Of a stretch of DNA of 34,990 bases, positions 1 to 34,472 are shown in pieces. Under the pieces are notes generated by a model. It was not told the origin of the DNA, made no database searches, and was given only the letters and a program-made list of their open reading frames with translations. The DNA is taken from positions 1 to 34,990 of IMG/VR virus record IMGVR_UViG_3300008259_000020. One strand, written 5' to 3'. Numbering within the stretch: position 1 is the stretch's first letter; each line of letters begins with the position of its first letter. Origin of the DNA: a virus (taxonomy: Duplodnaviria > Heunggongvirae > Uroviricota > Caudoviricetes). Position numbers and translations under genes: made by a program.

Positions 1-428
1 TTAAAAAATCTAAAGATTGTGTATCCATCGGCCTTCTCCTTTATTACATCTTCTGCTGCTACTTTACTTCTAGCATACGGACTTGCCATTTCCCAAGCAC
101 TACTGGTACTTGCAAACAGCATATGACCAGTTTCAACTCTATCCAGCATGTTTGCAGTACCCATTATATTTACTCGATAGTATTCGGTGGGTTCTCGTAA
201 ACTATCAGGTACTACACTTCTGCCAGCAAGATGTACGACAGCGTCATAACTGCCGTACACCCACTTTGTAATATCGTATGAAGTGTAGTTGTCACAGTAA
301 GCAAGAATATCATTGTATTCGCTGTGGATATTAATATCCCAAGCATCTACATAATGTCCGTGTTCTTTTAGAATTTTACAAACATGACTACCGATGTATC
401 CGGTTGCGCCTGTGACCAATACTTTCAA
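1..428 (-). CDS. NAD-dependent epimerase/dehydratase (GalE-like extended SDR), runs off the left window edge
   Basis: Not in the ORF track because it has no stop in the window. Manual translation from TTG at 428 gives MKVLVTGATGYIGSHV...VVHLAGRS...FASTSS...YARSKVAAE, with the GxxGxxG and YxxxK motifs. The start overlaps the upstream TGA stop (TTGA). Confidence 0.85.
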   Translation of the reverse strand, partial: MKVLVTGATGYIGSHVCKILKEHGHYVDAWDINIHSEYNDILAYCDNYTSYDITKWVYGSYDAVVHLAGRSVVPDSLREPTEYYRVNIMGTANMLDRVETGHMLFASTSSAWEMASPYARSKVAAEDVIKEKADGYTIFRFF

Positions 429-1591
429 TACTTCTTCTCCGCTACATGGTCTCTATAACGATTGCTGTCTCTACGCCACTGTTCGCCGTTGCCTTGCATG
501 ATGTCAATGTAACGATCAACAGTAGCATCGGTCCAGTCGCTAATTTTACCAATGTCTTTGTGAGGACCCTTCAGTAAATTTGACAACTTATGAACAGCAT
601 CTTCCTTGCTCCACGGAACATACATTCTCGTATGATCATTTGCAAAGATCTCAGGGAAACTGCGATATGCAGGAAATAGAACGTTGCAACCCAATGCATC
701 TGCTTCACTAACAGTGTTACTGGTCCAATCTTGTAACGCACAGTTAAACAACACACGACTATTGTTTAGAATATCGTAGTATTCGTTCTTTTTAAGATTT
801 TCATAAATCTTTAGTTTGCCTGCTGATTCTAATGCTCTTGCACGTTCGATATAGCGAGGATTGTTTGAACGTAACGGGCCACCTTGTAAAATAGCAAATT
901 CTGTGTCGTCTGCATGATTATAATTTTCAATCAGATCCATAAAAAAGTCGGGTTGTTTTTCTTGATCCCAACGTGCAGCAAATACAACACGATTAGGTCT
1001 TTGATAAAACGGAGTAATAGTATCGACTCTGCTTTGTACTTCTGCTTTGCCAAATGCAAGTCCGCTAACGTTATAAAGTGGCGCACGCCAATTAGCAATT
1101 TTCATATGAGCAACCATTTCTTCGTTACTAGCAAGAACACCAGTAACAAATTCGTTGGTCATTTCTTCGTACAAACTCATCCAACGGCTCATACCCCAAA
1201 CGTGTACAAAGTCGTCAGGATCAACTGCTTGTGCTAGACAACGTACCCAAACCTTTGGACGTTGTTCTGCAGGAATCTGATCCATAATGTACGGAAGCGA
1301 TTCGATACCGGGTTGAAACATGTCTTCAAAGAAAACTGCGTCTTCACCAGTTACTTCACCATTACGCATCATCTGTACTAGATTCATCATCTGACTCATA
1401 CTGAAATATGAACGTCCGTGTGCATCTAGAACTTGACCTACTTGGATAGACTTAGTGTTATCAATGGTGACACCGGGCACCGAGATATACTCAATGCCAC
1501 GGCGTTCAAACACTGTACGGCTCCAGTCTTCTAACTGAAGTGTGTATCTACCCTCATAGGGCTCTAGCCCCATGTAGAATAGTTTACGCAT
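425..1591 (-). CDS. GT-B fold glycosyltransferase (GT4-like)
   Basis: 388 aa. C-terminal Rossmann-like half with VVFAARWDQEKQPDFF and NTVSEADALGCNVLFP, resembling the GT4 nucleotide-sugar binding region. Confidence 0.8.
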   Translation of the reverse strand: MRKLFYMGLEPYEGRYTLQLEDWSRTVFERRGIEYISVPGVTIDNTKSIQVGQVLDAHGRSYFSMSQMMNLVQMMRNGEVTGEDAVFFEDMFQPGIESLPYIMDQIPAEQRPKVWVRCLAQAVDPDDFVHVWGMSRWMSLYEEMTNEFVTGVLASNEEMVAHMKIANWRAPLYNVSGLAFGKAEVQSRVDTITPFYQRPNRVVFAARWDQEKQPDFFMDLIENYNHADDTEFAILQGGPLRSNNPRYIERARALESAGKLKIYENLKKNEYYDILNNSRVLFNCALQDWTSNTVSEADALGCNVLFPAYRSFPEIFANDHTRMYVPWSKEDAVHKLSNLLKGPHKDIGKISDWTDATVDRYIDIMQGNGEQWRRDSNRYRDHVAEKKY

Positions 1592-1802
1592 TTCTTACCT
1601 TCTTATAGTTGTTACGTGCTTTTGCTCGTTGCCAACCACGCCACTTTACAAAAGCAGTCCATACACGAGACTTTTCGTTGTATAGATTTGCTTCATTCCA
1701 TTCCCAGAAATCGCCTTTGTAATCGAGTTCAGTGCGACAAAAATCGCGGAACTCTTCGAGGTCGTTGAAGACTTTATTTACTACCGGATTGGTAATAGCC
1801 AT
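1584..1802 (-). CDS. hypothetical protein
   Basis: 72 aa ORF tightly packed between its neighbours, with an upstream AAAGGA SD. Confidence 0.6.
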   Translation of the reverse strand: MAITNPVVNKVFNDLEEFRDFCRTELDYKGDFWEWNEANLYNEKSRVWTAFVKWRGWQRAKARNNYKKVRNA

Positions 1803-1807
1803 TTAGT

Positions 1808-2275
1808 TTAGTTTCCTTTGTTTGAGTTGTTAGGATAAAAGATTAGTGAGCCATTTTCTCCATCTTCGGAGACTTCGATTTCTACAAAGCGGCCCGGGTA
1901 CCTTGCAGAAATTTCTTGATACAAGTCGTCGCTGATCATTTCGCAACTCTTGTGATTTAGTTCTAAAATATCTTCATTGTAAAGTTTTTCAAGCCAGCGT
2001 TTGAACTGGATGAATTCGATGTCTCTATCATCGTGAAACACTTCAATACGAACTTTAAAGTGGAAGATATGACGATGAGGAACACCTAGGAAACTCACAT
2101 CGTCCCAGTCGCCAGTTTTAAGACGGGGGTCTGTTGCAGCGGCAGGATAAAGATGCACGCCTTCTTTACGAAAGGTTACCCAAATACTTTTAGATGCTGA
2201 TGTCATACGTTGTTCTTTTTCTTTTCTTAGGAAATAGTTGTGCAATGCTTCTTGCGTTTCGTTGTCTGTGTTCAT
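1808..2275 (-). CDS. QueD-like T-fold protein with LxxxHRHxF motif (DpdL-like, candidate 7-carboxy-7-deazaguanine decarboxylase)
   Basis: FLGVPHRHIFHFKV sits where QueD has CxxxHGH, and there is a later SCE motif. It lies near a TGT-like gene. The true start may be M24 (2206), because the predicted -10 box abuts ATG 2275. Confidence 0.6.
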   Translation of the reverse strand: MNTDNETQEALHNYFLRKEKEQRMTSASKSIWVTFRKEGVHLYPAAATDPRLKTGDWDDVSFLGVPHRHIFHFKVRIEVFHDDRDIEFIQFKRWLEKLYNEDILELNHKSCEMISDDLYQEISARYPGRFVEIEVSEDGENGSLIFYPNNSNKGN

Positions 2276-2304
2276 AATATATAACTACTTTTATTTGTTG
2301 TCAA
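2276..2304 (-). promoter_or_regulatory. sigma70-like promoter TTGACA-N17-TATATT
   Basis: Exact 17-nt spacing. The -35 box overlaps the TGA stop of the upstream gene. Confidence 0.7.
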
Positions 2305-2834
2305 CGAATAATTGTGTCTTTTGTGTACTTTGACCAGTCGGTAAAAGTATCACGATTGGTTAAATCGCTTACAGAATGAACCCAAACGCCTGGGTTAGTA
2401 GAACGAAAATCACGATCGTCCAACTTAATGCAGGCGTTATAACCAAGTTGACGAATGTACGGAAGTTTAACACTGATCATACTAATAAAGCGATCGTATT
2501 CGCTCCATCCTGCTTCAAGAACACCTTCGTGATATTTTAAGTCATAGTCTAGTGTAACCCAATAATCTTCTTTTAGCATAAATGCAATAGGATCATGCCA
2601 TGCCATATATTGATCATATTCAGGTTGAGTTTGGTCAATGCTAAAACTCATGTTAGCACCAAAGTAGATATGATCAACTTTGTTTTTCTTGGCTAGTTTT
2701 AGAATTTCTTCTGCTGGTTGTAAACCAACAACAAACAGTGTTTTCATTCCGTGAGCCGAAGTATGTTCGACCTCAGTACCAACAAAGAAGTTTGGCTGTT
2801 CGCTTTTTACACCAGTGCTATAATTTCGTTTCAT
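2301..2834 (-). CDS. hypothetical protein within the deazaguanine/glycosylation cluster
   Basis: 177 aa globular-looking ORF (FFVGTEVEHT, HIYFGANMSF, NPGVWVH). No function recognised. Confidence 0.7.
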   Translation of the reverse strand: MKRNYSTGVKSEQPNFFVGTEVEHTSAHGMKTLFVVGLQPAEEILKLAKKNKVDHIYFGANMSFSIDQTQPEYDQYMAWHDPIAFMLKEDYWVTLDYDLKYHEGVLEAGWSEYDRFISMISVKLPYIRQLGYNACIKLDDRDFRSTNPGVWVHSVSDLTNRDTFTDWSKYTKDTIIR

Positions 2835-3004
2835 GATTTCCTGACCTGATAAATTTCATTCCACACTTGCCAACGTTTTTTGACATAATCGTTGACTTCG
2901 TTGTGTGGATAGTTGTTTTGCTTCATACTTGCTATTATACGATCTAAATCGCATAATGCAAGATCTAATGCTTCTAATCTTAACTTTTTTTCAAGCGGAT
3001 CCAT
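2831..3004 (-). CDS. small hypothetical protein (57 aa)
   Basis: Below the ORF-track cutoff. Translates as MDPLEKKLRLEALDLALCDLDRIIAS...EIYQVRKS. It fills the gap and has an ATGA overlap with the next gene. Confidence 0.55.
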   Translation of the reverse strand: MDPLEKKLRLEALDLALCDLDRIIASMKQNNYPHNEVNDYVKKRWQVWNEIYQVRKS

Positions 3005-3206
3005 TTAGAGTTGCTTTCGCACTTAGTTTACTTTCGATTCTATGTATTTCGTCTTTGAGCCATAACTTCTGTGTTTTTAACTTATAAACTTCAGGGCTGA
3101 CGTTTTGATTATTAAAAGTTTCCGAAATGTAAGTGTCTAGTTCTCTGTGTTTTCTTTTTAGTTCTTCAAGATGTGCATTTAGTTTTTCGTCATCGTTGTT
3201 GCTCAT
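2991..3206 (-). CDS. small coiled-coil protein (DUF465/YdcH-like)
   Basis: LEELKRKHRELD...LKTQKLWLKDEI resembles the DUF465 helical-hairpin pattern. Confidence 0.55.
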   Translation of the reverse strand: MSNNDDEKLNAHLEELKRKHRELDTYISETFNNQNVSPEVYKLKTQKLWLKDEIHRIESKLSAKATLNGSA

Positions 3207-4664
3207 TTATACTTCCTCAAAAAGATTATTAAACATTGTACTAGCATTTACAGTTTTCTTACCAACATTAAGTCTAGTACCAATTACTTGCATCCAATAT
3301 CTGCTGTACTTTTCGATTGCTTCAAGACTTTTGGTGCGATCTTTTAAACTAAAAATTTCGTCAACCACATCTCTAAAAGTTATACGATCAAATCTGTCAT
3401 CTATAAGCATATATGGATATATTCCGCTATCATACATTCTATTTGCTCGTTGTGTACTTTCAATATGCATCCAAACATTGTGACCCATTTGCAGTGCATA
3501 CGAAAAACTATCCCAACTAGTTCTACCTTCTTTACCTATTTTATTTAGGTCGCCGGGCTTGTAAATACAAATATCTTTCATTTGACAATGCATGGATATT
3601 GGTGAATCCTCAAATGCATCCACAATGCCATCCTGCACAATACCTTGACTAAACAGTCTTGTATCAGTGGAATACTTTTTATCATCAGCACTAGGACTCA
3701 TCATGTAACTCCACTTGCCACGGTCTTCAATTCTTATACTATGATAAACCTGTCCATTAGCAGTTGCAAGGAAAGGACTTGCACAGTCATATGTAATCAT
3801 AAAGTTTGGATTATGATACTTACGAACAGCACGTTGAATGTCAGTTAACAGCACTGCCCATTCGAGTTTGCTTGTGCCAAGGAAGTGCATAACATCGTGC
3901 ATACCTGTTTCTAGCAAGCCATCGTGTATCATTGCAACAATACGACGAAGTATCAAGTGTACATCGCACATGTTCTGTCCACCCATAGCCCAACCATTAA
4001 AGTGAGTCTCTGGATATTGTTTTGGATCACAGTAGCCTTTGAATTCTTCGTACCACTCATCTGCTTCTTGATGATTGCCACCTTGAAGAACGTTTAGTAC
4101 TTTGAAGTTACCGCGGCGATTTGCCATGTAATATTTTGCATTGATATGAGTTGCATCAACTGCATCTTGATATGTTTTAATACCTGATGCAGCACTGGCC
4201 TTTGGATCACGGAAAGTCCACGTTGGAATATCCAGCATCATGCCGTAGTCCATGTATTCTTCCATCCAGTTTACAACTAGTTCACGCTTCTTTTGTGCCT
4301 TAGGACAGTTTGGATCTGTCCAGTCACCTTCCCACAATCCTTTTGCAATTTGAAAACCACCCGAGTCGCCCAGCAACCAACTGTTGTTCCTATCACGGTT
4401 ACGTAGCATATCTTCTTTTTCACTGAACTTATTAACGTCAAGTTCGGCATGACCTGCACTATAGAGCGCCCATTTGTAATGGAACGCTCCTTTGTTTGAG
4501 TTTAAGAAATTTAACGCTTCTACTTCACCAATACCTGCAGGAACACGATTAAGATCTACATATTCGCTGTATCGTTGTTTACCTATGAATGTAGCATAAA
4601 AGCCACTGATACTAGGCAAAAACACTGCATAATCATTTTGTGCCTCGGTTAAATTGCTATTCAT
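3207..4664 (-). CDS. dpdA: guanine transglycosylase, TGT/DpdA-like (probable DNA 7-deazaguanine insertion enzyme)
   Basis: TGT motifs appear in order: DSGGFQ, MMLD, VLQGG, GWAMGG, HFLG, YDCASP (Asp nucleophile position). The phage context next to a QueD-like gene favours a DNA over a tRNA substrate, which is inference. Confidence 0.75.
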   Translation of the reverse strand: MNSNLTEAQNDYAVFLPSISGFYATFIGKQRYSEYVDLNRVPAGIGEVEALNFLNSNKGAFHYKWALYSAGHAELDVNKFSEKEDMLRNRDRNNSWLLGDSGGFQIAKGLWEGDWTDPNCPKAQKKRELVVNWMEEYMDYGMMLDIPTWTFRDPKASAASGIKTYQDAVDATHINAKYYMANRRGNFKVLNVLQGGNHQEADEWYEEFKGYCDPKQYPETHFNGWAMGGQNMCDVHLILRRIVAMIHDGLLETGMHDVMHFLGTSKLEWAVLLTDIQRAVRKYHNPNFMITYDCASPFLATANGQVYHSIRIEDRGKWSYMMSPSADDKKYSTDTRLFSQGIVQDGIVDAFEDSPISMHCQMKDICIYKPGDLNKIGKEGRTSWDSFSYALQMGHNVWMHIESTQRANRMYDSGIYPYMLIDDRFDRITFRDVVDEIFSLKDRTKSLEAIEKYSRYWMQVIGTRLNVGKKTVNASTMFNNLFEEV

Positions 4665-5050
4665 TTAAACTTTAAGTCTTTCAATAAGTCGGTTAGTTCT
4701 GTAGTGCTATACGCAGTGTTGGGCCAAGAAGTAGTGCCGCTGGTAGTACTGATGTTAGGCGAATAGACCCGGGTTGAATTTGTACCAACGTAATCTTTGT
4801 AGTGGTCTCTGTAATTGTCTTTATATGCACGATTGTTTTGTAGTTCTCTCATCATACTTTCAAGATTTTGTACTTTTTTAAGCAATGATTCGAACGGGCC
4901 TTCTAGTCTTTCATCTTCGTTGAGTTCTTGTGCGTGAACAATTGCAGCAACCATCATAAAGTTACGCAATGCTTTTTTTACACTTGGATTATCTGACGCA
5001 AGTGCTGCGTCAAACATTTGTGCAAATTCTTCAATATTAAACTGTTCCAT
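4661..5050 (-). CDS. hypothetical protein
   Basis: 129 aa ORF overlapping both neighbours. No motif recognised. Confidence 0.6.
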   Translation of the reverse strand: MEQFNIEEFAQMFDAALASDNPSVKKALRNFMMVAAIVHAQELNEDERLEGPFESLLKKVQNLESMMRELQNNRAYKDNYRDHYKDYVGTNSTRVYSPNISTTSGTTSWPNTAYSTTELTDLLKDLKFK

Positions 5051-5222
5051 GTTTTATTCCCCATTTAATTTTTAACCAAATTCTTTCAAACGCATAATGA
5101 ACCGAAGTCAAAATAATATGTATTGCAATAGCATCTGCAATACCAGTCCACAATGCAGTAATTAATAACGCAATTAGTCTGTATAATATTGTTCTAACTA
5201 AGGTTCGTGTATGAGTTTCCAT
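5037..5222 (-). CDS. small membrane protein (DUF2061-like)
   Basis: METHTRTLVRTILYR...HYAFERIW pattern with two hydrophobic segments. Confidence 0.55.
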   Translation of the reverse strand: METHTRTLVRTILYRLIALLITALWTGIADAIAIHIILTSVHYAFERIWLKIKWGIKHGTV

Positions 5223-5950
5223 TATTTTTGTTGTGCTGGAAGAATATACTCGTACTTGGCTAGTCCGCTGTCTACTGTAATTTTCATTGCACCTTGATCA
5301 GTGATACTTAGTTTTTTGTCGCCGTCGAGATGCAGAATTGCCAGAGTCTTGTCAATTGGCCAAGCCCACGTGTGTTTCAGTGTTCCTGTTACACTGTGCT
5401 GGAAAGTAAAACTACCAGCGTGTGTATTTAGATCACCAAAGTAGAAGTTCAAATTTCCGTTTTCAGTTTTAACTTGGAATACAGTTTCTTCGCTGTGAGC
5501 ACCAGCCATCAGTTTCATACGGGCAATTGCAGCCATAGATGGTTCAATTTCGATGTCCCAAGATGATCCTTTAAATTTTACTGATTTGAGTTTTTCTTCG
5601 ATAATTGCTCGGTTCATAAAGCGATAATCATTCTGGAAGTCACCGCCAGCATTTTTAAAGTGAATCTGTGTAGGAATAGTCTCTCCATTGCGCTCTTCTT
5701 GTTTAATAACAATTGTAGCCTTTTCTTTGTATTCCGGATTCTTCAAGTGGTAAGCAAGTTTGCCAAGATCTGGCATACCAAATACGCCAGTAAACTCGGC
5801 AACTGGCTTGTGTGTTGTGCCTGTTAAAATAACAGATCTATCTTCTGCCATGGACTCAATTGTAGTAGCAGATTCTGCTGTCACTTTAAGTGTAGCAATA
5901 AAGCCTAGTGAATGTGTATGCGATACGATGTCTTGTAAAATGTCTTTCAT
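5222..5950 (-). CDS. probable DNA polymerase sliding clamp (gp45/PCNA-like)
   Basis: About 243 aa and beta-rich, in the replication block near PolB, with a clamp loader elsewhere in the window. Start moved to ATG 5950 (GGAG SD plus 6 nt). Family resemblance judged by eye only. Confidence 0.55.
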   Translation of the reverse strand: MKDILQDIVSHTHSLGFIATLKVTAESATTIESMAEDRSVILTGTTHKPVAEFTGVFGMPDLGKLAYHLKNPEYKEKATIVIKQEERNGETIPTQIHFKNAGGDFQNDYRFMNRAIIEEKLKSVKFKGSSWDIEIEPSMAAIARMKLMAGAHSEETVFQVKTENGNLNFYFGDLNTHAGSFTFQHSVTGTLKHTWAWPIDKTLAILHLDGDKKLSITDQGAMKITVDSGLAKYEYILPAQQK

Positions 5951-5973
5951 ATTTTTCTCCAATGATTGTTTTT

Positions 5974-6002
5974 ATTGTATAGTATAAGCCTTTGTAAGTC
6001 AA
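5974..6002 (-). promoter_or_regulatory. sigma70-like promoter TTGACT-N17-TACAAT
   Basis: Exact 17-nt spacing upstream of the clamp gene. The -35 box overlaps the upstream TGA stop. Confidence 0.7.
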
Positions 6003-6757
6003 CTCTTTTTTCTAATAGAATTGTTAGATTCAACTGCTGCTTCTAGTGTATTTAGATTTATGTTTGCATTTGCTGCTGTTTTTAGAAGTGCTTGAGTGTC
6101 TTTAGGTAAACACATTCCGCCCCAACCTCTTGTCTCTTTTTCTATAAATGTATGGCTTTCACCTATACGACTGTCAACACCGACTCCCCAACGCACACAG
6201 TCATAGTTTAATCCTAGTGTTTCGCAAAAATTGTACATTTCGTTAAAGAAACTACACTTGGTAGCAAGAAATGCATTTCTAAAATACTTGATTGCAATAG
6301 CATCTTGTGGTGTACAAAGAGAAATTTTTATTTCTGGATAGGTATAGGAATAAAAATCTCTCCAATAATCGGTGTTTCCGCCTGCTAAAAAGATGTGTTT
6401 TAGATTTCTCAAATCCTCATCTGCTGCACTAGCCCGTAAAAATTCAGGACTAAATGTAACAGAATGTTCTGGAAAATCTCTCTCGATGTCTTTCCACCCA
6501 TCTAAGGATATTGTACTTTTAACTAGTATAGGAATGTGTTTAGGAAGTGTACCGATAACATGATGTACAATACTCATATCGCAACTTCCGTCATCAGTTG
6601 AAGGAGTAGGAACACAAACAATTGCAGCATGTAGATTTTTAATATCTTCGACACGAGTATTGTTAAAATTAGGATCTACTATAGTAATTTCGTGATATAA
6701 ATTAAATGCATTGTAATAGGCTTTACCTACAAAGCCGTAACCAAGTAATGCTATCAT
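5999..6757 (-). CDS. UDP-glucose/GDP-mannose 6-dehydrogenase-like protein lacking the C-terminal domain
   Basis: GYGFVG dinucleotide motif, CVPTP, KST, SPEFLR, KYFRNAFLATK and the catalytic GWGGMCLPKD. Only 252 aa. Confidence 0.8.
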   Translation of the reverse strand: MIALLGYGFVGKAYYNAFNLYHEITIVDPNFNNTRVEDIKNLHAAIVCVPTPSTDDGSCDMSIVHHVIGTLPKHIPILVKSTISLDGWKDIERDFPEHSVTFSPEFLRASAADEDLRNLKHIFLAGGNTDYWRDFYSYTYPEIKISLCTPQDAIAIKYFRNAFLATKCSFFNEMYNFCETLGLNYDCVRWGVGVDSRIGESHTFIEKETRGWGGMCLPKDTQALLKTAANANINLNTLEAAVESNNSIRKKS

Positions 6758-7476
6758 GCTGCTATCCTTGCTTCTTGATAAAATTGTAATGTTTCAAAAG
6801 TAAATCTCCAGTCAGTTACTTCGATACCAACGCCTCTATTGCGTTTTTTAATCTCTTGTGCTAGTGGATAATCGTTTCCGTCTTCGGACATCTTATCTCC
6901 AAAAAAGTAAAGTCTATCCCCGCTTTTAAAATGTTCTAGTATTTGACTTTTATCTTTGCCTTTTTCGTAAATGTCAATGCCAGTTTCGCCACCAATACGT
7001 GCTTCAAGGTCTTTGAAGGTTGAATTAAATCCATCAACTAGTTTTTTTCTTTCCTGATCTAATTCGTCAAATTCAACATATAGACGACGTTCTTTTAACG
7101 TAGCATTTCTTCCTACAACACTAAAGTTGACTGCACCACCACGTTCTTCGATATGGTTACCTGTGCGTAAAACAAACTTACTTTGTTTTAATTTGCCTTC
7201 TAACCAGTGACGTGCGAGATCTGGTAATTGCCAAGTTGATTGTTTTACAACATTGCCTTTGACTCTTACTTCATTGCCACTGCAATTAAAAATAATACTA
7301 ACAGCGTTTACAATACGTTCGTTGAGTTGCTCAACGGTTTTGCTATAATCGCTACCAGTTACTAGATATACAGAATTTTGTTGACAAAACAACAAAAAGA
7401 AATCAGCAAACTCAGGATTTATCTTTCCTCTACTAGGAGTAAGGGTTCCGTCTACATCAAAGATAAATTTATTCAT
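6754..7476 (-). CDS. HAD-IIB phosphomannomutase (eukaryote PMM-type family)
   Basis: FDVDGTLT, VTGSD, IEERGGAVNFS, GGETGIDI and FFGDK...GNDY. Confidence 0.85.
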   Translation of the reverse strand: MNKFIFDVDGTLTPSRGKINPEFADFFLLFCQQNSVYLVTGSDYSKTVEQLNERIVNAVSIIFNCSGNEVRVKGNVVKQSTWQLPDLARHWLEGKLKQSKFVLRTGNHIEERGGAVNFSVVGRNATLKERRLYVEFDELDQERKKLVDGFNSTFKDLEARIGGETGIDIYEKGKDKSQILEHFKSGDRLYFFGDKMSEDGNDYPLAQEIKKRNRGVGIEVTDWRFTFETLQFYQEARIAA

Positions 7477-7904
7477 ATGCTTTTAGATTCCTTTTCTGCG
7501 TCAACTACTCTTCGACGTAAATCGCTACTGCTAAATCTGTGATCACGTTTGTTAAAATGTAACTCAATGCCACGTTTACGACATACGTCTTTGCCAGAAA
7601 AATCCTTTTCGCGATATTCTTCACCTAGAAATCGTATGTCAATTTCAAACAGTTCTAGTATATCCACTACATCTTGTTCTGTTTGATATGGAACAATTTC
7701 GTCTATAAACTTAACAGCATTTAGTTGAGCATAGCGTTCTACCAATGTTTGAACTGGTTTGTTTTTTTCTGTAGGGCGGTCTATTGTGGGATCTGTTTGC
7801 AAGCCTACAATTAAATAATCGCAGTTTGCTTTGGCTTCTCGTAACATACCAATGTGTCCGGCATGTAACAGATCAAAGGTGCTAAAAGTTATTCCTACTT
7901 TCAT
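7473..7904 (-). CDS. TagD-like cytidylyltransferase (glycerol-3-phosphate cytidylyltransferase family)
   Basis: TFSTFDLLHAGH (HxGH motif), GLQTD, ERY and RDHRFSSS. Confidence 0.85.
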   Translation of the reverse strand: MKVGITFSTFDLLHAGHIGMLREAKANCDYLIVGLQTDPTIDRPTEKNKPVQTLVERYAQLNAVKFIDEIVPYQTEQDVVDILELFEIDIRFLGEEYREKDFSGKDVCRKRGIELHFNKRDHRFSSSDLRRRVVDAEKESKSI

Positions 7905-7907
7905 GTA

Positions 7908-10574
7908 TTAACTCCAATCAAAAAGTGAATTAAACGTAGTATTTTGTTTAGTGCTTTCTAAATCATAATCTAGAACGCCGATAAGATTGTCAAGTTTGTT
8001 ATCAATGATAACTTCTTCCATACTGTTATCATCAAATGGCAATTCTTTAAACCACTGCGGAAGTCTTAATTCGTCTACTGGATATGCTACACTAGTATAC
8101 CCAAGTGGATTTTGTCTTACCTTACAAACAATAACTTTCATGCCGTCCACAATCTCTTGACTGTATCTGTCGCCGTTCATGCGCTTTAGTGTATTCCAGT
8201 TAATGCTTGCACGAACGTGACCTGGCATATTTGCTTTTCCAAGTTTTGCTTCTTCTCGCTGATATGCTTGAATATTATTGGCACGTTTTGGCGAGCCTTT
8301 TTCATATCCAGGACGTTCTTTAAATGCACGTCTAAAGTTTGTAATAGCCTCGAGTATGTCACTTTCCGGTTTCTTTAACAACACCATAGTAAGCAATTCG
8401 CTGAGAAACTCTTGCATAAACACAGGAGTATCACTGCGCTTTAGATCAAGACCCATTGCTTTAATCTTACCAGGTTTGCCGTCGACGTCTTTGCGTTTGT
8501 TTTCTTCATCATATACAAGAACTGCATAACGTTTCTTGGTAATAAACAATCCAGTTTCGCCTACAATTTCACGTCCTGCTTTGATTACTTCTGCACGGTT
8601 CTTTGGGCAATGAAACGCACTGCCCATAAATTCGCCGAAGGTTTTATTTGCTTCTTCGGAAACTTGATCATACAATGTAATAACATTTTCTTTACTCCAT
8701 GGTATGTGTCCGTCGTTGATGTCTTTTTGCAGTGTAGAGAATGCACTAAAGTATACAGAGTCAGTATCACCGTAAATTATTGCCTTACCGACATGATCGT
8801 ATTCGCCAGTGATAATTTCATTTACTTTACTAGCCATGTGCTTGGCAATCTGTCTACCAGTTAGTGTAGTGCTTTGTCCAATGCGTTTGTCGAAAAACCT
8901 GCAACCTGGATTAAGAATAGCACCATACAAACTGTTAAGGTTAATCTTCTTAACCAACTGACGCTTGTCCCAGAACGAAATTTCAGTTTCGTTTCCTGCA
9001 TCCTTTGCTTTTTTAAGCATTGCCTGTAGTTCTTTACGTTCTTTGTACCAACGTGCCAGTAGTCCGGGAATAACAGATTCGAACTCATGTGTAAAGATAG
9101 TACCGTTAGCACTGATCATCCAAGGCATGTTGCTGTCAAACATTAGTTTATAAAGTTCAGCACCGCTTAACACGTCAGTACGACCATCTTCCCAATCAAC
9201 TGTGATGGTCTTGTCTCTGCGTTGTTCCATTACCCAAGTGTATTCAAATGTGCCAAACAGGCCTTCCCACGCTGCGGCAAATGATTTTTTATGCAGTGTC
9301 ATCTGCTCGTGGATATATTGATCAGTGTATTCTGGGCGTAACTGTCCAACAATACTTTCTGGAGCCATGTTTAATGCTCTAATTACTGAAGGATACAGAC
9401 TGTTCAAGTCCATACTTCCAACCCACTGATGCAATCCTTTTTTGGGATATGCAACATATGCACCTGCTGCTTGTGTGTTGCCGCCGTGGTCACGTCTATT
9501 CGGAACCTGCATACCTCTACGGTGTGCTTCGTTGATAATTGCTTGTTCTGTAACAGCAACCGCACCCATAATAGTTTGCAACAGAACAGTGTTGTCGTGA
9601 GCAATCTCATTTGCTAGATCAATAAAGCGTAGTTTTTTGTCTAGTTTATCAAGTAGTGCAACGTCCTGTCTGTTATATTCTATAAAGGTTCTAAAGTCGT
9701 TATTGTAAAGTTGATCTAGTGTGCCTTCGTATTGTGTCTTGCGTTCATCTAGTTCGTACTCGCCAATTGCATCAAGTCTATAACTATGACGTTCTTCGTA
9801 AGTGTACTTACGATACAATTCTAGAGAGTCAATATGTACACGACCTACAAAGTCAAATGTCTCAGAAGTCTTGCCGTACTTTTCGTATTCGCGCTTCTTG
9901 GGATATTGATCCCATAAGCAAAAACGTCTAGTATCGTTTTTACTCAACACTCTAGCAACTCTATTGACAGTGTACGGAACGTCATATCCTTCACTGTTCC
10001 AACCACTTAGAATATCTGCATCTTGTATCAAGTCAAGAAATGTATCCAACATGTCTGCTTCTTTTTCAAAAAGAATACAGTTCTCGCCCCACTCTACACA
10101 ATGTTCACGGGCTTGCTCCATTGTTAGTGTCTTTGGTGGAACTGCTAGTGTTATAAGTGCATCCACCCACTGTAAACAAACAGTGATTGCAGTAATTGGC
10201 ATAAACGGATCGCTAGTAGGAGCAAATCCACGTTCTGGATCAAAGTCGGTCTCGATATCCCAAAATGCTACGTTTAGTTTAGGAGCATCTTGATTTTCGT
10301 AGTTTTCACTTAGACACTGAAAGATAGGATTAATATCGCTTTCAAACAGATTCTTATTTTTATTAATTGCTAATTCTTTTCTGTAGTCTTTGGTATTTTT
10401 ACAAACAATGCGACTTAGCGGATCGCCATATACACTTTTATACTTTCCTTTAGGATCTTCGTAATAGAAAGTATACTTTACTGGATACTCTTGTTGTATT
10501 CGTTTTCCGTCTTTACGTTCAATAACTCTAATAATATCAGAGTCTCTGTCAAACATTGCGTCGACATATGGCAT
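7908..10574 (-). CDS. family B DNA polymerase (T4 gp43-like)
   Basis: ExoI DIETD, ExoII WNSEGYD, and polymerase motifs DLNSLYPS, KINLNSLYG and YGDTDS. Uninterrupted 888 aa. Confidence 0.97.
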   Translation of the reverse strand: MPYVDAMFDRDSDIIRVIERKDGKRIQQEYPVKYTFYYEDPKGKYKSVYGDPLSRIVCKNTKDYRKELAINKNKNLFESDINPIFQCLSENYENQDAPKLNVAFWDIETDFDPERGFAPTSDPFMPITAITVCLQWVDALITLAVPPKTLTMEQAREHCVEWGENCILFEKEADMLDTFLDLIQDADILSGWNSEGYDVPYTVNRVARVLSKNDTRRFCLWDQYPKKREYEKYGKTSETFDFVGRVHIDSLELYRKYTYEERHSYRLDAIGEYELDERKTQYEGTLDQLYNNDFRTFIEYNRQDVALLDKLDKKLRFIDLANEIAHDNTVLLQTIMGAVAVTEQAIINEAHRRGMQVPNRRDHGGNTQAAGAYVAYPKKGLHQWVGSMDLNSLYPSVIRALNMAPESIVGQLRPEYTDQYIHEQMTLHKKSFAAAWEGLFGTFEYTWVMEQRRDKTITVDWEDGRTDVLSGAELYKLMFDSNMPWMISANGTIFTHEFESVIPGLLARWYKERKELQAMLKKAKDAGNETEISFWDKRQLVKKINLNSLYGAILNPGCRFFDKRIGQSTTLTGRQIAKHMASKVNEIITGEYDHVGKAIIYGDTDSVYFSAFSTLQKDINDGHIPWSKENVITLYDQVSEEANKTFGEFMGSAFHCPKNRAEVIKAGREIVGETGLFITKKRYAVLVYDEENKRKDVDGKPGKIKAMGLDLKRSDTPVFMQEFLSELLTMVLLKKPESDILEAITNFRRAFKERPGYEKGSPKRANNIQAYQREEAKLGKANMPGHVRASINWNTLKRMNGDRYSQEIVDGMKVIVCKVRQNPLGYTSVAYPVDELRLPQWFKELPFDDNSMEEVIIDNKLDNLIGVLDYDLESTKQNTTFNSLFDWS

Positions 10575-20203: not shown

Positions 20204-20914
20204 CTATTTATCAATGTTTGCTTTATAGATTAACTTATCTATTCTGGTGATATTATCACCAACAATCATTTGCACCAGCATTACTACATGTTCATTACGT
20301 ACATACATGTAAGTTCCTTGAATCCAGCGATATTCGTTTTCGTGATGATCTAATGCAACTTTGCCAATTGAAACATTTTTAGAATTTTTCTTAATCCAGT
20401 CGGCTAATATCTTACTGCCCGGTTTCTTTCCAAATGTCAATTTCCAAGGAAACTTTGGTTCTTGATTTACTAAGATAACATTTTGATTGTTGGTTAGAAA
20501 GTCAATTGCTGACTCAGAAGGTTCCCATATTTCGACGTTAACAGAAAGTTTTGATGATACTTTTTTTAATAAGTCGTGGTCGTTTGTGTAAATTATAAGT
20601 GTACGACTTTCACAACGAATCATATATTCGCCGGCATTTTTTAAACACTTGTATATGTGATAGGCTTCATCAACTTCGTGTGAATGTATAACTGTGGCTT
20701 TAGAAAATCTATTTCTAAGAGTTAAAATTTCATTGGATTTATTACGCTGAACAAATTCTTTTAAACGTTGTTCAGCGTAAGACAATTTACCATTACGTTG
20801 TAAATCTGTACGGAAAATACTTGTAAGTGTATTTGTAGTTTTTAACTTATACAAATATTTCCCGTAATGCAATCGCTTTGCTTCATGCAGTTTCAGATTG
20901 CTCATGTGTTTCAA
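20204..20914 (-). CDS. hypothetical protein
   Basis: 236 aa ORF (the start may be M4). No motif recognised. Confidence 0.65.
   Translation of the reverse strand: MKHMSNLKLHEAKRLHYGKYLYKLKTTNTLTSIFRTDLQRNGKLSYAEQRLKEFVQRNKSNEILTLRNRFSKATVIHSHEVDEAYHIYKCLKNAGEYMIRCESRTLIIYTNDHDLLKKVSSKLSVNVEIWEPSESAIDFLTNNQNVILVNQEPKFPWKLTFGKKPGSKILADWIKKNSKNVSIGKVALDHHENEYRWIQGTYMYVRNEHVVMLVQMIVGDNITRIDKLIYKANIDK
20205..20212 (-). promoter_or_regulatory. T4-late-like promoter GATAAATA
   Basis: Overlaps the upstream TAG stop. 5 nt before ATG with no SD. Confidence 0.55.
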
Positions 20915-23132
20915 CTACTAATTTAATCTCGTTATCATTGATATCGATATGTACTTCGCCGCCATCTTTTAGGCTTCCAAACAACATAAGCCTTGAAAGA
21001 GGACGTTTAATATCTTTGTCAATCACACGTTGTAGCGGTCTTGCACCCATTTTAGGATCAAAGCCTTTGTCAACCAAGTAATCCAGTGCTTCGTCACTAA
21101 CCGTAATTTTAACATTCTTGTCTTTGACTTGATCCATGAGTTCTTTCAAGAACTTTCCTACAATTTTCATCATAACAGGCTTGCTAAGTTTTGAGAATGT
21201 AATTACACCATCGAGACGATTTCTAAATTCCGGACTGAAGTACTTCTTTAGTTCGCCGTCTTCGTAATCTCTGTCAAGACTTTGACTAAAACCAATAGTA
21301 TTTTTCTCTGCTTCTTTAGCACCAAGGTTAGTGGTTAGGATAAGAACGCAGTTACGAGCATCTGCTTCTTTGCCGTTGGACCCTGTGATTTTACCATTGT
21401 CCATCAACTGTAGAAGCACTGCACTAACATCAGGATGTGCTTTTTCAATTTCGTCTAGCAACAGTACACAGTTAGGATTCTCTTGTAGTTTGATGATGAG
21501 TTGTCCTGCATCATCTTCAAATCCAACGTAGCCCGGAGGTGCACCGATAAACTTTGCAATACTGTGCTTTTCTTGGTATTCACTCATATCAAAACGAATT
21601 AGTTTAACACCAAGGTGATGTGCAAGTTGTTTTGCTGTTTCAGTTTTACCAGTACCTGTTGGCCCCATAAACACAAACGAACCGATTGGTTTGTTTTCAG
21701 GTTTAAGTCCTGCTTGAGCAACAAGAATTTTGTCAACAATACTTTCAATTGCACTGTCTTGACCATAAACACTTGATTTTAGATTTGTTTCTAGATTGAC
21801 AAGATTTTCTGTTTCGCGTTCGGCAATTTGATCTTCGGGAATCTTTACAAGTTTAGCAAGTTCGTACTGAATATTTTCAGCAGTTACAACCTTGTTGTCA
21901 ACTTGATCCAGCACTTTGAATCTGCTACATGCAACGTCAATGAGATCGATTGCTTTATCAGGAAGTTTTTTATCTGCTTGATACTTGACTGAAAGTTTAA
22001 CAGCGGCTTCGATTGCATCATCAGTGATTACTACACTATGATAATCCTCATAGTACTTGCGAATACCATCAAGAATTTTAACAGACATTTCTGGTGTAGG
22101 TTCATCAACATTTACACGCTGGAAACGACGCATAAGTGCGCGATCTTTTTCAAAATACTTGCGATACTCTTCCCAAGTAGTGCTTGCAACAACCTTAACG
22201 TTGCCTTTTGATAGGGCAGGTTTGAGCATGTTTGCAAGATCGTTAGCACTGTTTCCACTGCCAGCGCCTGCACCACTGATCATGTGTGCTTCATCAATAA
22301 ACATAATGGTCTTGCCCTTTGTTTGTAGGGCTTGAAGAACAAGTTTAAAGCGTTCTTCAAAGTCGCCGCGGTACTTACTGCCGGCAAGCATACTACCAAT
22401 GTCCAGTGCATAAACATTATAGTCTTGTAAAAACTTTGGTACTTGTTTGTTAACAATTTTCCAAGCAAGACCTTCTGCAATTGCAGTTTTACCTACACCA
22501 GGATCGCCAACCATTAGTACGTTTGACTTGGTTCTACGTCCAAGTGCAAGAGCAACTTGTTCTACTTCTTCTTCACGTCCAATAACAGGATCAATCTTGT
22601 TTTTCTTTACTTCGCTGTTCAAGTCTGTGGTAAAGGAACGAAGTGCCTTGTTAGCAACGCCTTGATTTTCCTGTTGTTCTTCTTCGTCAACCATGCTATC
22701 AAATTCAGTACTCATGTAAGTAACAAATTTGTCTTTTGAGATACCGGCTTGTTGTGTTACAAAGTATGCATACGAACGTTTTTCGTTTAGAATACTAACA
22801 AATACGTCACCAACGTCAATGTTATTACGTCCATTAAACAATACCTGTGTAAATGCTCTATTCAATACACGTTCAACAGTTTGTGTCTTTTTAGGCTTGT
22901 ACCTTGTGCCTTCGATCTTAATCTCATCTAGTTTTGTCTTGAGATAGTTTTCAAGATTCTTTTTCATTAGTTCAGGGTCGGCACCAAACCCAATAATAAC
23001 TTTTTCAAAGTGTTCTTCACACAGTATTGCATACAAAAGATGCTCAAGTGTAATGTACTCATGCTGTAGTTTTTTAGCATCGTTCATTGCTTTGTCAAAA
23101 ACAACTTGTAGTACTTGGCTAGGTTCAACCAT
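20883..23132 (-). CDS. clpA: ATP-dependent Clp protease ATP-binding subunit ClpA
   Basis: Clp N-domain and two AAA+ modules (GDPGVGKT, GPTGTGKT, FIDEAH, LLDEIEK). No ClpB middle domain. IGF loop (TIGFS) and GARPL are present. Confidence 0.93.
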   Translation of the reverse strand: MVEPSQVLQVVFDKAMNDAKKLQHEYITLEHLLYAILCEEHFEKVIIGFGADPELMKKNLENYLKTKLDEIKIEGTRYKPKKTQTVERVLNRAFTQVLFNGRNNIDVGDVFVSILNEKRSYAYFVTQQAGISKDKFVTYMSTEFDSMVDEEEQQENQGVANKALRSFTTDLNSEVKKNKIDPVIGREEEVEQVALALGRRTKSNVLMVGDPGVGKTAIAEGLAWKIVNKQVPKFLQDYNVYALDIGSMLAGSKYRGDFEERFKLVLQALQTKGKTIMFIDEAHMISGAGAGSGNSANDLANMLKPALSKGNVKVVASTTWEEYRKYFEKDRALMRRFQRVNVDEPTPEMSVKILDGIRKYYEDYHSVVITDDAIEAAVKLSVKYQADKKLPDKAIDLIDVACSRFKVLDQVDNKVVTAENIQYELAKLVKIPEDQIAERETENLVNLETNLKSSVYGQDSAIESIVDKILVAQAGLKPENKPIGSFVFMGPTGTGKTETAKQLAHHLGVKLIRFDMSEYQEKHSIAKFIGAPPGYVGFEDDAGQLIIKLQENPNCVLLLDEIEKAHPDVSAVLLQLMDNGKITGSNGKEADARNCVLILTTNLGAKEAEKNTIGFSQSLDRDYEDGELKKYFSPEFRNRLDGVITFSKLSKPVMMKIVGKFLKELMDQVKDKNVKITVSDEALDYLVDKGFDPKMGARPLQRVIDKDIKRPLSRLMLFGSLKDGGEVHIDINDNEIKLVVETHEQSETA

Positions 23133-25364: not shown

Positions 25365-26255
25365 TTAGCCTAGTAACTTTGACAATGTCTTTGGCCCGGC
25401 CACTCCATCGGCTGTTAAGCCATTCTTTGTCTGCCATGCTTTTAATGCTGACTCTGTTCCAGGGCCAAATGAGCCGTCTGCTGTAACTCCAAGTGCTTTT
25501 TGCAATTTTGCTACTGAAGGGCCGCTTGATCCTTTTTTCAATGTTTCTGTAACGCTGGCTGATGCACCACCAGTACCACTTGATACGGAACTGGCTGATG
25601 GTGTAAAATTTCCACCAAGTACTTTCAATGCTTCTTCAAAACGTTCTTTACGATCAGCAAGGCCGATGTCACCACCGTTGATGATTTTTGTCATCTTAAC
25701 AATGTCTTTGGTGTCAGCAACTGCATTTAGTTTCTTTGCGTTCCAGAACCAGCAAGCACTCTCGATAGCACCTTTTTCAGTTGCAACATAATCAGCAGCC
25801 TGTTCTGCTGTCATGTTAACACTTTTACCAAAGTTGGTATAGTTCTCACGGCCAGTAAGTTGCTTTAGACCACGACCACGGAATCTCCATCCGTCGCCTT
25901 CTTTTACGTTGCCCATCTTGGAAGTTCTGAACTCGTCCATGTAAACATAGTTAGCAATCATCTCTGGGTTTTTAGCATACTCTTTTGCGTTACGCTTGCC
26001 TGGACCAAAATAGCGAGGGAATATTTTTAACAGAGTTTCTTCTCTATAATTCAAATTCTCTTCGAGCATCTTGAAGTTACCTGACTCGTGAGCACACTGA
26101 GCCATAAATCCTGCAACACGCTCGATTGTGTTAATTTCGTACTTAGGAAATATCTCTATCATTGCGGCATGCCACTTTTCGGCATCCGGATTTCCTTTTA
26201 AAATTTGTTTTACTTGTTCAACTGTAAATTTGAACTTTAAGTCTTCTGCGCCCAT
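25365..26255 (-). CDS. endolysin: GH19 glycoside hydrolase + C-terminal peptidoglycan-binding domain
   Basis: FMAQCAHESGNF, EENLNY, FRGRGLKQLTGRENY and INGG (GH19), then LKKGSSG...ADGSFGPGT...ADGVAGPKT (PG_binding_1). AAGGA SD before ATG 26255. Confidence 0.9.
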   Translation of the reverse strand: MGAEDLKFKFTVEQVKQILKGNPDAEKWHAAMIEIFPKYEINTIERVAGFMAQCAHESGNFKMLEENLNYREETLLKIFPRYFGPGKRNAKEYAKNPEMIANYVYMDEFRTSKMGNVKEGDGWRFRGRGLKQLTGRENYTNFGKSVNMTAEQAADYVATEKGAIESACWFWNAKKLNAVADTKDIVKMTKIINGGDIGLADRKERFEEALKVLGGNFTPSASSVSSGTGGASASVTETLKKGSSGPSVAKLQKALGVTADGSFGPGTESALKAWQTKNGLTADGVAGPKTLSKLLG

Positions 26256-34443: not shown

Positions 34444-34472
34444 TTTATAACATTACTTATGATCATTGTCAA
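34444..34472 (-). promoter_or_regulatory. sigma70-like promoter TTGACA-N17-TATAAA (extended TG)
   Basis: 17-nt spacing, directly upstream of the SD of 34064..34429. Confidence 0.55.

Follow-up and report, generated by a model that had tools for sequence, protein, structure and literature searches.

The window analysed here (34,990 nucleotides; positions 1 to 34,990 of the IMG/VR virus record IMGVR_UViG_3300008259_000020, Caudoviricetes) contains a gene cluster which, in our judgement, somewhat probably encodes a DNA hypermodification module that uses the 7-deazaguanine pathway in its DpdL branch, with subsequent glycosylation of the base. From this module of an uncultured jumbo phage we predict that the DNA contains a purine bearing a sugar, for which no paper with a description was found; in particular, no description of glycosylated deazaguanine in DNA was found in the literature. 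The proposal is built on the identities of the genes, the fold of the central enzyme, conserved catalytic motifs and the linkage of the genes in related phages.

The module belongs to a tightly packed run of minus-strand genes, extending from the polymerase gene to the end of the contig (all features described below lie on the minus strand). The intergenic gaps between the polymerase and epimerase genes do not exceed 36 bp, which fits co-transcription; a scan for promoters and terminators gave a chance-level result. All of the genes named in an earlier, sequence-only reading of this DNA (TGT-like, QueD-like, GT-B, epimerase, dehydrogenase-like, phosphomannomutase and cytidylyltransferase) were found on this strand. 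The run is headed by a gene encoding a family B DNA polymerase (PolB; 7908..10574; 888 aa; DNA_pol_B 2.6e-37, exonuclease domain 8.2e-18), which is located upstream of the module in 72 of 80 related loci and anchors the synteny.

Pfam and NCBIfam matches bear out the earlier placement of three sugar-nucleotide genes beside PolB, encoding (i) a sugar-phosphate nucleotidyltransferase of the cytidylyltransferase superfamily (7473..7904; 143 aa; CTP_transf_like 1.1e-12), whose NCBIfam matches, RfaE domain II (3e-21) and glycerol-3-phosphate cytidylyltransferase (1.8e-17), are below the cut-offs, (ii) a eukaryotic-type phosphomannomutase (PMM) of the HAD-IIB type (6754..7476; 240 aa; Pfam PMM 1.2e-26, TIGR01484 cut-off reached), and (iii) a short NDP-sugar dehydrogenase-like protein of the UDPG/GDP-mannose type (5999..6757; 252 aa; UDPG_MGDP_dh 5e-24, TIGR03026 2.3e-40). 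The last of these covers positions 68-298 of the 413 positions of the TIGR03026 model. It comprises the central domain with a portion of the NAD domain and lacks the C-terminal domain. This short form is conserved, since all 17 relatives compared (17/17) have 246-267 aa. At the other end of the run, an extended-SDR NDP-sugar epimerase/dehydratase gene (3..428; N-terminal 142 aa; Pfam Epimerase 1.3e-21, GDP_Man_Dehyd 2.6e-17) ends at the contig edge; full-length relatives have approximately 290 aa. Its best NCBIfam match is GalE (1.5e-19, under the cut-off), and an epimerase gene follows the GT-B gene in 10 related loci. The sugar cassette is missing in 24 of 71 relatives, and is therefore accessory. 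This, together with the domain missing from the dehydrogenase-like protein, was counted against the glycosylation module.

The product of the gene at 3207..4664 (485 aa) is a divergent transglycosylase, which clearly belongs to the TGT superfamily as judged from its predicted fold, and which we propose to be a DpdA-like base-exchange enzyme. It has no match in Pfam, PHROGs or NCBIfam. Its AlphaFold model (pLDDT 92.5) matched TGT in a Foldseek search (E 5e-8), and VIA-align placed ArcTGT (Z 18.2), QTRT2 (17.7), TGT (16.6) and DpdA (7ui4; 15.8) within a series of TGT-type matches, including Cap10, that spans Z 18.2 to 14.8; the next TIM barrel scored 11.8. The catalytic motif DSGGFQ is retained (as LLGDSGGFQ) and the CxCxxC zinc motif is absent. 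Residues D100, S101, G103, D145, H260, G263 and D293 are invariant, and D100 and D145 align with D102 and D156 of TGT; the family comprises 981 representative clusters at E<=1e-3. The TGT/DpdA-like identity assigned earlier was thereby upheld. The protein falls outside the tRNA TGT family, as the Pfam TGT threshold is not reached and its profile is nearer to DpdA-type proteins (profile comparison: ACP17 E 5e-10, BUCT-ZZ01 E 7e-8). No described DpdA subfamily is close to this family, and the remaining DpdA-type proteins in the comparison have only 259-424 aa. In structure, tRNA enzymes resemble the protein as closely as DpdA does; this and the missing zinc motif were also entered against the favoured interpretation.

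Upstream of the transglycosylase gene, 4661..5222 holds a pair of short, poorly conserved ORFs with no family matches, one of 129 aa (7/80 related loci) and one of 61 aa (2/80). The first of these (4661-5050) was rejected as the QueD-like T-fold gene, because the product is helical, of low complexity and devoid of the CxxxHGH motif. They are followed, towards PolB, by the gene of a conserved 246-aa protein (5222..5962; phrog_12062, unknown function), found in 79 of 80 related loci and always between PolB and the TGT-like gene. Its reading as a clamp is tentative: a homologue in Phosso (hhalign 1e-35) is a sliding clamp according to the submitters' annotation, but a profile search against the PDB gave no clamp match. 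The homologue in PA5oct is annotated as a structural protein.

Downstream of the transglycosylase gene lie a gene for a 71-aa DUF465 protein (2991..3206; Pfam DUF465 2.4e-7; tblastn, 39/80 loci) and, directly after it, a 57-aa ORF (2831-3004). A conserved 177-aa protein (2301..2834) is encoded in 73 of 80 related loci, with the TGT-like gene on one side and DpdL on the other, and is the fourth module member in this clade, PA5oct and ACP17. Its only homologues among cultured phages are those of the PA5oct-like phages (43% identity) and ACP17 (35%), the latter located between FolE and DpdA. In the structural comparison of its model (pLDDT 87.9) the top match was STAS (Z 7.3), and the similarity to QueE (Z 5.6-5.9) was not significant.

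The QueD-like T-fold gene of the earlier reading is instead the ORF at 1808..2275, which encodes a QueD-derived DpdL homologue of 155 aa (phrog_17812 4e-34). Its LGVPHRHIF motif, retained in 60 of 61 relatives, fits the LxxxHRHxF signature that defines DpdL (PMC10516641). By tblastn the protein is 56% identical to the DpdL locus of ACP17 (9e-38) and 34% identical to that of phiST (3e-8). DpdL has been proposed to act as a 7-carboxy-7-deazaguanine decarboxylase, and co-expression of dpdL and dpdA in Escherichia coli yielded no dDG (PMC10516641), which was counted against the favoured pathway; we adopt the decarboxylase activity as this published proposal. The genes folE, queE, queC and that of dCMP hydroxymethylase are absent from the window, as first noted, and FolE, QueE and QueC are not encoded anywhere on the 111-kb contig (an estimated ~31% of the genome), which carries a QueD-like gene at 52.9 kb; their absence was likewise weighed against the pathway. 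The sole gene of the thymidylate synthase family (28861-29727) passes the ThyA equivalog cut-off; the presence of only a canonical ThyA on the contig argues against a pyrimidine route.

A conserved 72-aa ORF with no family match (1584..1802; tblastn, same position in 49/80 related loci) separates DpdL from the gene of a 388-aa GT-B glycosyltransferase (425..1591), whose designation is substantiated by a Pfam Glycos_transf_1 match above the cut-off (27.8 bits; cut-off 26.4). In hhalign comparisons, the profile of its family (A4) matched bacterial proteins bearing PF12038 with E 1.2e-10, and comparisons with the QTMAN family gave E 1.5e-10 to 1.6e-7, whereas the best value for the generic GT4 enzymes used as controls was 2.7e-3. 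By this measure the protein has a specific kinship with the family of tRNA-queuosine mannosyltransferases (QTMAN) and stands further from generic GT4 enzymes. The similarity lies mostly in the donor-binding half, where both have the motifs HRxxxEKQ and PxRLxYxE; Pfam QTMAN_N, the N-terminal domain on the acceptor side, had no match in the protein, and this restriction to one half was counted against the favoured pathway. QTMAN is reported to glycosylate a 7-deazaguanine nucleoside in tRNA. A profile search against the PDB gave no match to the T4 glucosyltransferases.

The linkage of the glycosyltransferase gene with those of the DpdA-like enzyme and DpdL is kept across related contigs, six cultured phage groups and prophages. 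Among the related viral contigs, 47 have a downstream flank of 4.5 kb or more, and in every one of these (47/47) the GT-B and TGT-like genes are 1.0-3.6 kb apart; in all 14 cultured-phage records having a tblastn homologue of the GT-B (14/14) this lies within ~2 kb of DpdL. PA5oct, ACP17 and X1 have the genes for the DpdA-like enzyme, GT-B and DpdL side by side; in the Synechococcus phage BUCT-ZZ01, whose GT-B (72% identical) adjoins DpdL, they occur together with FolE, QueD, QueE and a purine phosphoribosyltransferase. Phosso carries GT-B and DpdL with FolE and QueE, and its TGT-like gene is ~170 kb away. The triad is also present in bacterial genome records; the Methylobacterium locus examined among them is a prophage.

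This linkage bears on an unlikely alternative, in which the DNA receives unglycosylated dDG or dCDG, while the GT-B and its sugar cassette have another target, such as a glycan of the virion or host surface or a small molecule, and are connected with the module through shared early expression alone. Such a division of labour would agree with phiST, where DpdL and DpdA3 make dDG without a glycosyltransferase, with the lack of an obvious acceptor atom on 7-deazaguanine, and with the variability among relatives of the sugar-nucleotide genes, which are common auxiliary genes of phages. However, in the collections searched, every member of the GT-B family with enough flank adjoined a DpdL or DpdA-like gene, in prophages as well as across phage lineages whose remaining genes differ, and its nearest characterised family works on a deazaguanine nucleoside.

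In the glycosylated-base pathway that we favour, FolE, QueD and QueE, of host or phage origin, would produce 7-carboxy-7-deazaguanine, DpdL would convert it into 7-deazaguanine, the divergent TGT-fold enzyme would exchange guanine in DNA for this base, and the QTMAN-like GT-B would place a sugar on it. Because 7-deazaguanine has no hydroxyl group, which was counted against this pathway, the bond would have to be N- or C-glycosidic, or be preceded by a step catalysed by the 177-aa protein. The donor may come from the phage cassette, with phosphomannomutase and nucleotidyltransferase yielding an NDP-mannose-type sugar, followed by tailoring through the dehydrogenase-like protein and epimerase; the variable cassette would diversify the DNA mark. 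The kinship with QTMAN and the pairing of phosphomannomutase with a nucleotidyltransferase fit a phage-made sugar donor. The original suggestion of a phage-made sugar on a deazaguanine base is supported in part by these features and by the glycosyltransferase linkage. Two of the conditions named in advance as fatal to it, grouping of the transglycosylase with tRNA TGTs and loss of the GT linkage in relatives, were examined, and neither refutes it; the sugar, its attachment atom and the DNA target are what we infer, the target by analogy with phiST and the restriction resistance reported for PA5oct. The likely purpose is to shield phage DNA from restriction.

A quite improbable variant with the same end product has the GT-B glycosylating the free base or nucleotide, which the TGT-like enzyme, or the polymerase after salvage, then inserts. 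Biosynthesis of N2-glycosylated preQ0 natural products, such as huimycin and dapiramicin, proceeds on the free base, a purine phosphoribosyltransferase belongs to the BUCT-ZZ01 module, and the divergence and larger size of the TGT-like protein (485 aa against 259-424 aa) mean that its pocket could differ; against this, no phosphoribosyltransferase was seen in the window, QTMAN works on the polymer and phages are not known to decorate their DNA bases with sugars at any stage before the polymer. Little credence can likewise be given to action of the TGT-like enzyme and GT-B on phage or host tRNA, whereby GUN anticodons would carry a glycosylated deazaguanine as their wobble base and translation would be tuned: the fold similarity to ArcTGT, QTRT2 and TGT, the nearest named family of the GT-B (reported as a tRNA enzyme) and the 30 tRNA genes of the contig, including Asp-GTC, Asn-GTT and His-GTG, would suit it, but phiST ties DpdL to a DNA base, PA5oct DNA itself behaves as G-modified, the module lies between PolB and replication genes and is also carried by prophages, and the enzyme is under the Pfam tRNA TGT threshold and without the zinc motif of tRNA TGTs.

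Among known systems, that of the Cellulophaga phage phiST (FolE, QueD, QueE, DpdL and DpdA3) replaces dG fully with dDG (PMC10516641). It shares with the module described here an LxxxHRHxF DpdL, an adjoining TGT-superfamily transglycosylase, the absence of QueC and a neighbouring DNA polymerase, but has no glycosyltransferase, sugar-nucleotide genes or 177-aa homologue, and only a weak relationship connects its DpdA3 (259 aa) with the transglycosylase described here (485 aa; hhalign probability 69%, E 4e-5). The DNA of the Pseudomonas jumbo phage PA5oct is reported to carry a modified G and to withstand cutting at G-containing restriction sites, and the phage is restricted by defence nucleases that target modified-G phages (PMC12191111). 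Its module (EST35_0316-0322) has PolB, the 246-aa protein and the TGT-like gene in the same order (TGT-like 34% identity, 6e-73; GT-B E 1e-12; DpdL 56%; 177-aa protein 43%). It differs in the position of the glycosyltransferase gene, between the TGT-like gene and DpdL, in a QueE gene 3 kb away, in that no sugar cassette separates PolB from the 246-aa protein, and in the location of the 177-aa homologue, ~27 kb off.

The QTMAN/GTDC1 family (PF12038 plus Glycos_transf_1) consists of GT-B enzymes, like the product of 425-1591, and acts on a 7-deazaguanine derivative in nucleic acid, as is proposed here; an NDP-mannose donor of the QTMAN type could be supplied by the phosphomannomutase and nucleotidyltransferase of the operon. 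QTMAN is reported to attach its sugar, in tRNA, to the hydroxyl of the queuosine cyclopentenediol; the base predicted for this phage has no such group. The T4 alpha- and beta-glucosyltransferases, which act on hmC, differ in that a pyrimidine is modified and dCMP hydroxymethylase is required, whereas the thymidylate synthase family is represented here by a canonical ThyA alone. The logic would be the same in both cases: after replication, a GT-B enzyme decorates a non-canonical base with a sugar, presumably as a means of escaping restriction.

The window represents the first 34,990 bases of an IMG/VR contig of 111,225 bases. Given that a contig of this length is only 31% complete according to CheckV, the virus must be a jumbo phage. 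Megablast of the first 8 kb returned no cultured phage, i.e. none is close at the DNA level. All genes of the analyzed module lie on the minus strand and, from the PolB gene to the contig end, they overlap or are separated by gaps of no more than 36 bp. In the direction of transcription, the PolB gene (7908-10574) is followed by a sugar cassette encoding (i) a nucleotidyltransferase of the cytidylyltransferase superfamily (7473-7904), (ii) a eukaryotic-type phosphomannomutase (6754-7476) and (iii) an NDP-sugar-dehydrogenase-like protein (5999-6757). Further downstream are the genes of a conserved 246-aa protein (5222-5962), two small ORFs (4661-5222), a TGT-like protein of 485 aa (3207-4664), a DUF465 protein (2991-3206), a 57-aa ORF (2831-3004), a conserved 177-aa protein (2301-2834), a DpdL homologue (1808-2275), a 72-aa ORF (1584-1802) and a GT-B glycosyltransferase (425-1591), as well as the N-terminal 142 residues of an SDR epimerase/dehydratase (3-428) at the contig end. 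The genes named in an earlier, sequence-only reading of this DNA are present where it had placed them.

A scan of this run for promoters and terminators gave results at chance level overall. Among the better sites in that scan were two sigma-70-like sequences on the minus strand, which coincide with the two widest gaps between genes of the run: TTGACT-17-TACAAT (5974-6002), just before the gene of the 246-aa protein, and TTGACA-17-TATATT (2276-2304), just before the DpdL gene. Other parts of the window encode a ClpB/Hsp104-type double AAA+ chaperone of 749 aa (20883-23132; AAA_2 2e-53, ClpB_D2-small 4e-26) and a probable endolysin (25365-26300), with a peptidoglycan-binding domain (9e-13) and a weak glycoside hydrolase 19 match.

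The TGT-like protein (3207-4664) contains the sequence LLGDSGGFQ and has no match in Pfam, PHROGs, NCBIfam or a single-sequence PDB search. An exhaustive search (E<=1e-3) assembled its family of 981 representative clusters. Residues D100 (within DSGGFQ), S101, G103, D145 (LDxPT), H260, G263 and D293 (YDxSSP) are invariant across 52 full-length members. The family profile matched only TGTs in the PDB, at a marginal E of 0.18, with D100 aligned to TGT D102 and D145 to TGT D156; D293, judged from the position of its motif, may be the nucleophile Asp. Since these searches of sequence families gave nothing or marginal matches, the assignment is based on the fold. The top Foldseek matches of the AlphaFold model (pLDDT 92.5) are all TGTs (Z. 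mobilis TGT, E 5e-8, probability 1.00). VIA-align yielded Z scores of 18.2 for ArcTGT, 17.7 for QTRT2, 16.6 for TGT, 15.8 for DpdA (the structure of a DNA preQ0 insertase) and 14.8 for Cap10, with 11.8 for the next, unrelated TIM barrel. The predicted structure identifies the 485-aa protein as a real, very divergent enzyme of the TGT superfamily, devoid of the CxCxxC zinc motif.

This motif is carried by tRNA TGTs. The complete CxCxxC...H site is absent from the 485-aa protein, whose corresponding region (DICIYKPG...HN) has a single Cys. The protein does not match Pfam TGT (PF01702) at E<=1, nor does it reach the gathering score, and only 3 of the 52 relatives give a match (best E 0.042). Judged by sequence, the enzyme is placed outside the Pfam-defined tRNA TGT family, and the clustering with tRNA TGTs that the sequence-only reading had named as speaking against its proposal was not seen. 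In hhalign comparisons, the TGT-like profile appears nearer to the DpdA-type proteins of phages ACP17 (probability 96.6%, E 5e-10) and BUCT-ZZ01 (94.6%, E 7e-8) than to DpdA3 of phage phiST (69%, E 4e-5).

The DpdL homologue, whose gene (1808-2275) lies 930 bp from that of the TGT-like protein, contains LGVPHRHIF at residues 63-71. This fits the signature LxxxHRHxF, which in DpdL proteins takes the place of the CxxxHGH of QueD (PMC10516641, the paper that named DpdL). The motif persists in 60 of 61 relatives, and none of its residues L, H, R, H and F is missing from more than one of them. By tblastn, the protein shares 56% identity with the DpdL locus of ACP17 (9e-38) and 34% with that of phiST (CGPG_00067; 3e-8). 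DpdL is a proposed decarboxylase of 7-carboxy-7-deazaguanine, of unproven activity, for which a heterologous test failed (PMC10516641). The lack of product upon co-expression of dpdL and dpdA could be due to the omission of operon partners, namely the GT-B and the 177-aa protein.

The evidence for DNA as the target comes from the literature: in phiST DNA the deazaguanine deoxynucleoside dDG replaces dG (PMC10516641), and the DNA of PA5oct is reported to bear a modified G (PMC12191111). Action of the TGT-like protein and the GT-B on tRNA rather than DNA seems improbable to us, given the distance from the tRNA TGT family described above, even though the fold is equally near to tRNA enzymes in VIA-align and the contig carries 30 tRNA genes (ARAGORN; contig 58916-78120, beyond the window), including Asp-GTC, Asn-GTT and His-GTG with GUN anticodons.

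With regard to precursor supply, a QueD-like gene is located on the contig beyond the window (52,870-53,436; PTPS, 1e-13). Searches of the 111,225-base contig, an estimated 31% of the genome, revealed no FolE, QueC or QueE. In the region 52062-53436, the QueD-like PTPS gene (188 aa, motif CHLLHGY, not CxxxHGH) overlaps the start of a gene whose 295-aa product contains a DLD motif, lacks any family match and could be another transferase. Two other candidates were rejected: the ORF at 4661-5050, considered as QueD-like, encodes a low-complexity helical protein, and the only radical-SAM gene of the contig, considered as QueE, encodes a B12-binding KedN5-like methyltransferase. The latter protein (631 aa; window 34453-34990, continuing to contig 36348, minus strand) has its best match, below the cut-off, in the KedN5 family of methylcobalamin-dependent C-methyltransferases (7.7e-63).

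We also inspected the conservation of the module. A broad TGT-like alignment contained no conserved stretch and a narrower one was used to gather related loci, giving 80 related viral contigs with 61-88% identity in the TGT-like protein. In their core gene order, PolB is followed by a variable sugar cassette, then by the genes of the 246-aa and TGT-like proteins, in some cases by DUF465, and finally by the 177-aa protein, DpdL, the 72-aa ORF and GT-B. In all 47 loci with enough flanking sequence, the TGT-like gene is followed by a GT-B gene at a distance of 1.0-3.6 kb, so the linkage of the glycosyltransferase to the dpdA-like gene, a test set by the sequence-only reading itself, is kept in relatives. 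An iterated search distinguished two GT-B subfamilies, approximately 20% identical to each other.

Among cultured phages, GT-B adjoins DpdL in 14 of 14 records with a tblastn match to GT-B. In PA5oct, the TGT-like, GT-B and DpdL genes are adjacent, with QueE 3 kb further on; ACP17 has FolE, a homologue of the 177-aa protein, DpdA, GT-B, DpdL and QueE; and Xanthomonas phage X1 has GT-B, a gene annotated as "queuine tRNA-ribosyltransferase", DpdL and QueE. Phosso carries PolB, the "clamp" (a homologue of the 246-aa protein), DpdL, GT-B, FolE and QueE, and its TGT-like gene is approximately 170 kb away. The module of Synechococcus phage BUCT-ZZ01 comprises QueE, a purine phosphoribosyltransferase, QueD, FolE, a second GT, a DpdA-like protein, DpdL and a final GT-B, which is 72% identical to that of the window. 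Taken as a group, these five phages have QueE and FolE adjoining the module. The BUCT-ZZ01 locus (ON615601.1, 65689-72623) provides a full FolE/QueD/QueE set in a cultured cyanophage; its purine phosphoribosyltransferase and the two GTs flanking the DpdA-like and DpdL genes might mean that a disaccharide is made or that a salvage route operates. The GT-B was also detected at 19 loci from genome records of bacteria and archaea; wherever the available sequence exceeded about 4 kb, its neighbours include TGT-like, DpdL or both. The Methylobacterium locus that we inspected proved to be a prophage and also harbours genes for a serine recombinase, a VapE-like primase, endonuclease I and an HNH protein.

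The C-terminal part of the GT-B (425-1591) matches Glycos_transf_1 (PF00534; 27.8 bits, cut-off 26.4, E 2.1e-6), as do 18 of 35 relatives. Its neighbours in a language-model look-up include a cluster of the tRNA-queuosine mannosyltransferase QTMAN. We compared the phage GT-B profile with an alignment of six bacterial proteins bearing Pfam QTMAN_N (PF12038), using ORFs from Glycos_transf_1 loci as controls. The QTMAN-family alignment was matched with a probability of 96-97% (hhalign, E 1.4e-9 to 1.2e-10) and the six single proteins with E 1.5e-10 to 1.6e-7, versus a best E of 2.7e-3 for the control ORFs and 4e-4 for their joint profile. These profile comparisons indicate a specific kinship to the QTMAN family, beyond generic GT4 similarity. 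Confidence in this alignment is confined to the donor-binding half. It took relaxed hhalign settings to align the N-terminal half, and then with low confidence, and QTMAN_N has no match at E<=1 among 35 family members. A search of the PDB with the GT-B profile gave only a marginal WlaC match, and a large homologue search retrieved only close relatives, which have no Pfam labels. QTMAN is described as mannosylating queuosine, a 7-deazaguanine derivative, in tRNA-Asp. The phosphomannomutase and nucleotidyltransferase of the operon would fit a donor of the NDP-mannose type.

The sugar cassette is an accessory element of variable content: 24 relatives have nothing between PolB and the 246-aa protein, and the others contain differing mixes of nucleotidyltransferase, phosphomannomutase, dehydrogenase-like protein and epimerase at this place. 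The dehydrogenase-like protein (5999-6757) is a short form conserved in relatives (246-267 aa), which rules out a local truncation.

The 246-aa protein (5222-5962) has a constant position between PolB and the TGT-like gene. The sequence-only reading had called it a clamp, an identity that a PDB profile search did not confirm, as no clamp signature was detected. Its homologue is annotated as a beta clamp in Phosso and, from mass spectrometry, as a virion structural protein in PA5oct. The 177-aa protein (2301-2834) belongs to the module in the clade of the window, in PA5oct-like phages and in ACP17. No significant fold match was obtained for it, either from the Atlas or with its confident model (pLDDT 87.9; best Z 7.3, STAS-like; QueE Z 5.6-5.9), and with only one Cys it is not a radical-SAM enzyme. 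It is unrelated to CGPG_00066 of phiST, EST35_0320 of PA5oct, the 174-aa exonuclease of BUCT-ZZ01 and the "glycosylase" of Phosso.

Taken together, the module very probably directs a deazaguanine-type modification of DNA. Of the glycosylated-deazaguanine pathway proposed in the sequence-only reading, the enzyme set and the linkage stand; the placing of a sugar on that base is the best reading and somewhat likely to be correct. Literature searches retrieved no description of glycosylated deazaguanine in phage DNA, and the DpdL paper (PMC10516641) does not mention sugars. A broader scenario, for and against which we see about equal chances, is that many jumbo phages of aquatic habitats, together with several cultured phages and some prophages, convert DNA guanine into 7-deazaguanine bearing an N- or C-glycosidic sugar, which the variable cassette would diversify against modification-dependent nucleases, similarly to O-antigen variation. 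The GT-B family is very large: clustering at 90% identity leaves at least 8000 clusters, many of them from marine samples, so this mark could turn out to be common in ocean viromes. If the reading is true, a glycosylated deazapurine would constitute a new class of DNA base, with a bearing on restriction evasion, type IV and END-type nucleases, and the sequencing and enzymology of modified DNA.

The T4-type glucosyl-hmC system differs in needing a dCMP (or dUMP) hydroxymethylase, none of which was found on the contig (an estimated 31% of the genome). A pyrimidine route is unlikely, because the only thymidylate-synthase-family gene of the contig encodes a canonical ThyA (361 bits, against an equivalog cut-off of 327). 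To our knowledge, sugar decorations of natural DNA bases are confined to pyrimidines (hmC and hmU), and the 7-deazaguanine DNA modifications that we know of are without sugar; the base proposed here would, if the reading is true, be the first sugar-bearing purine in natural DNA.
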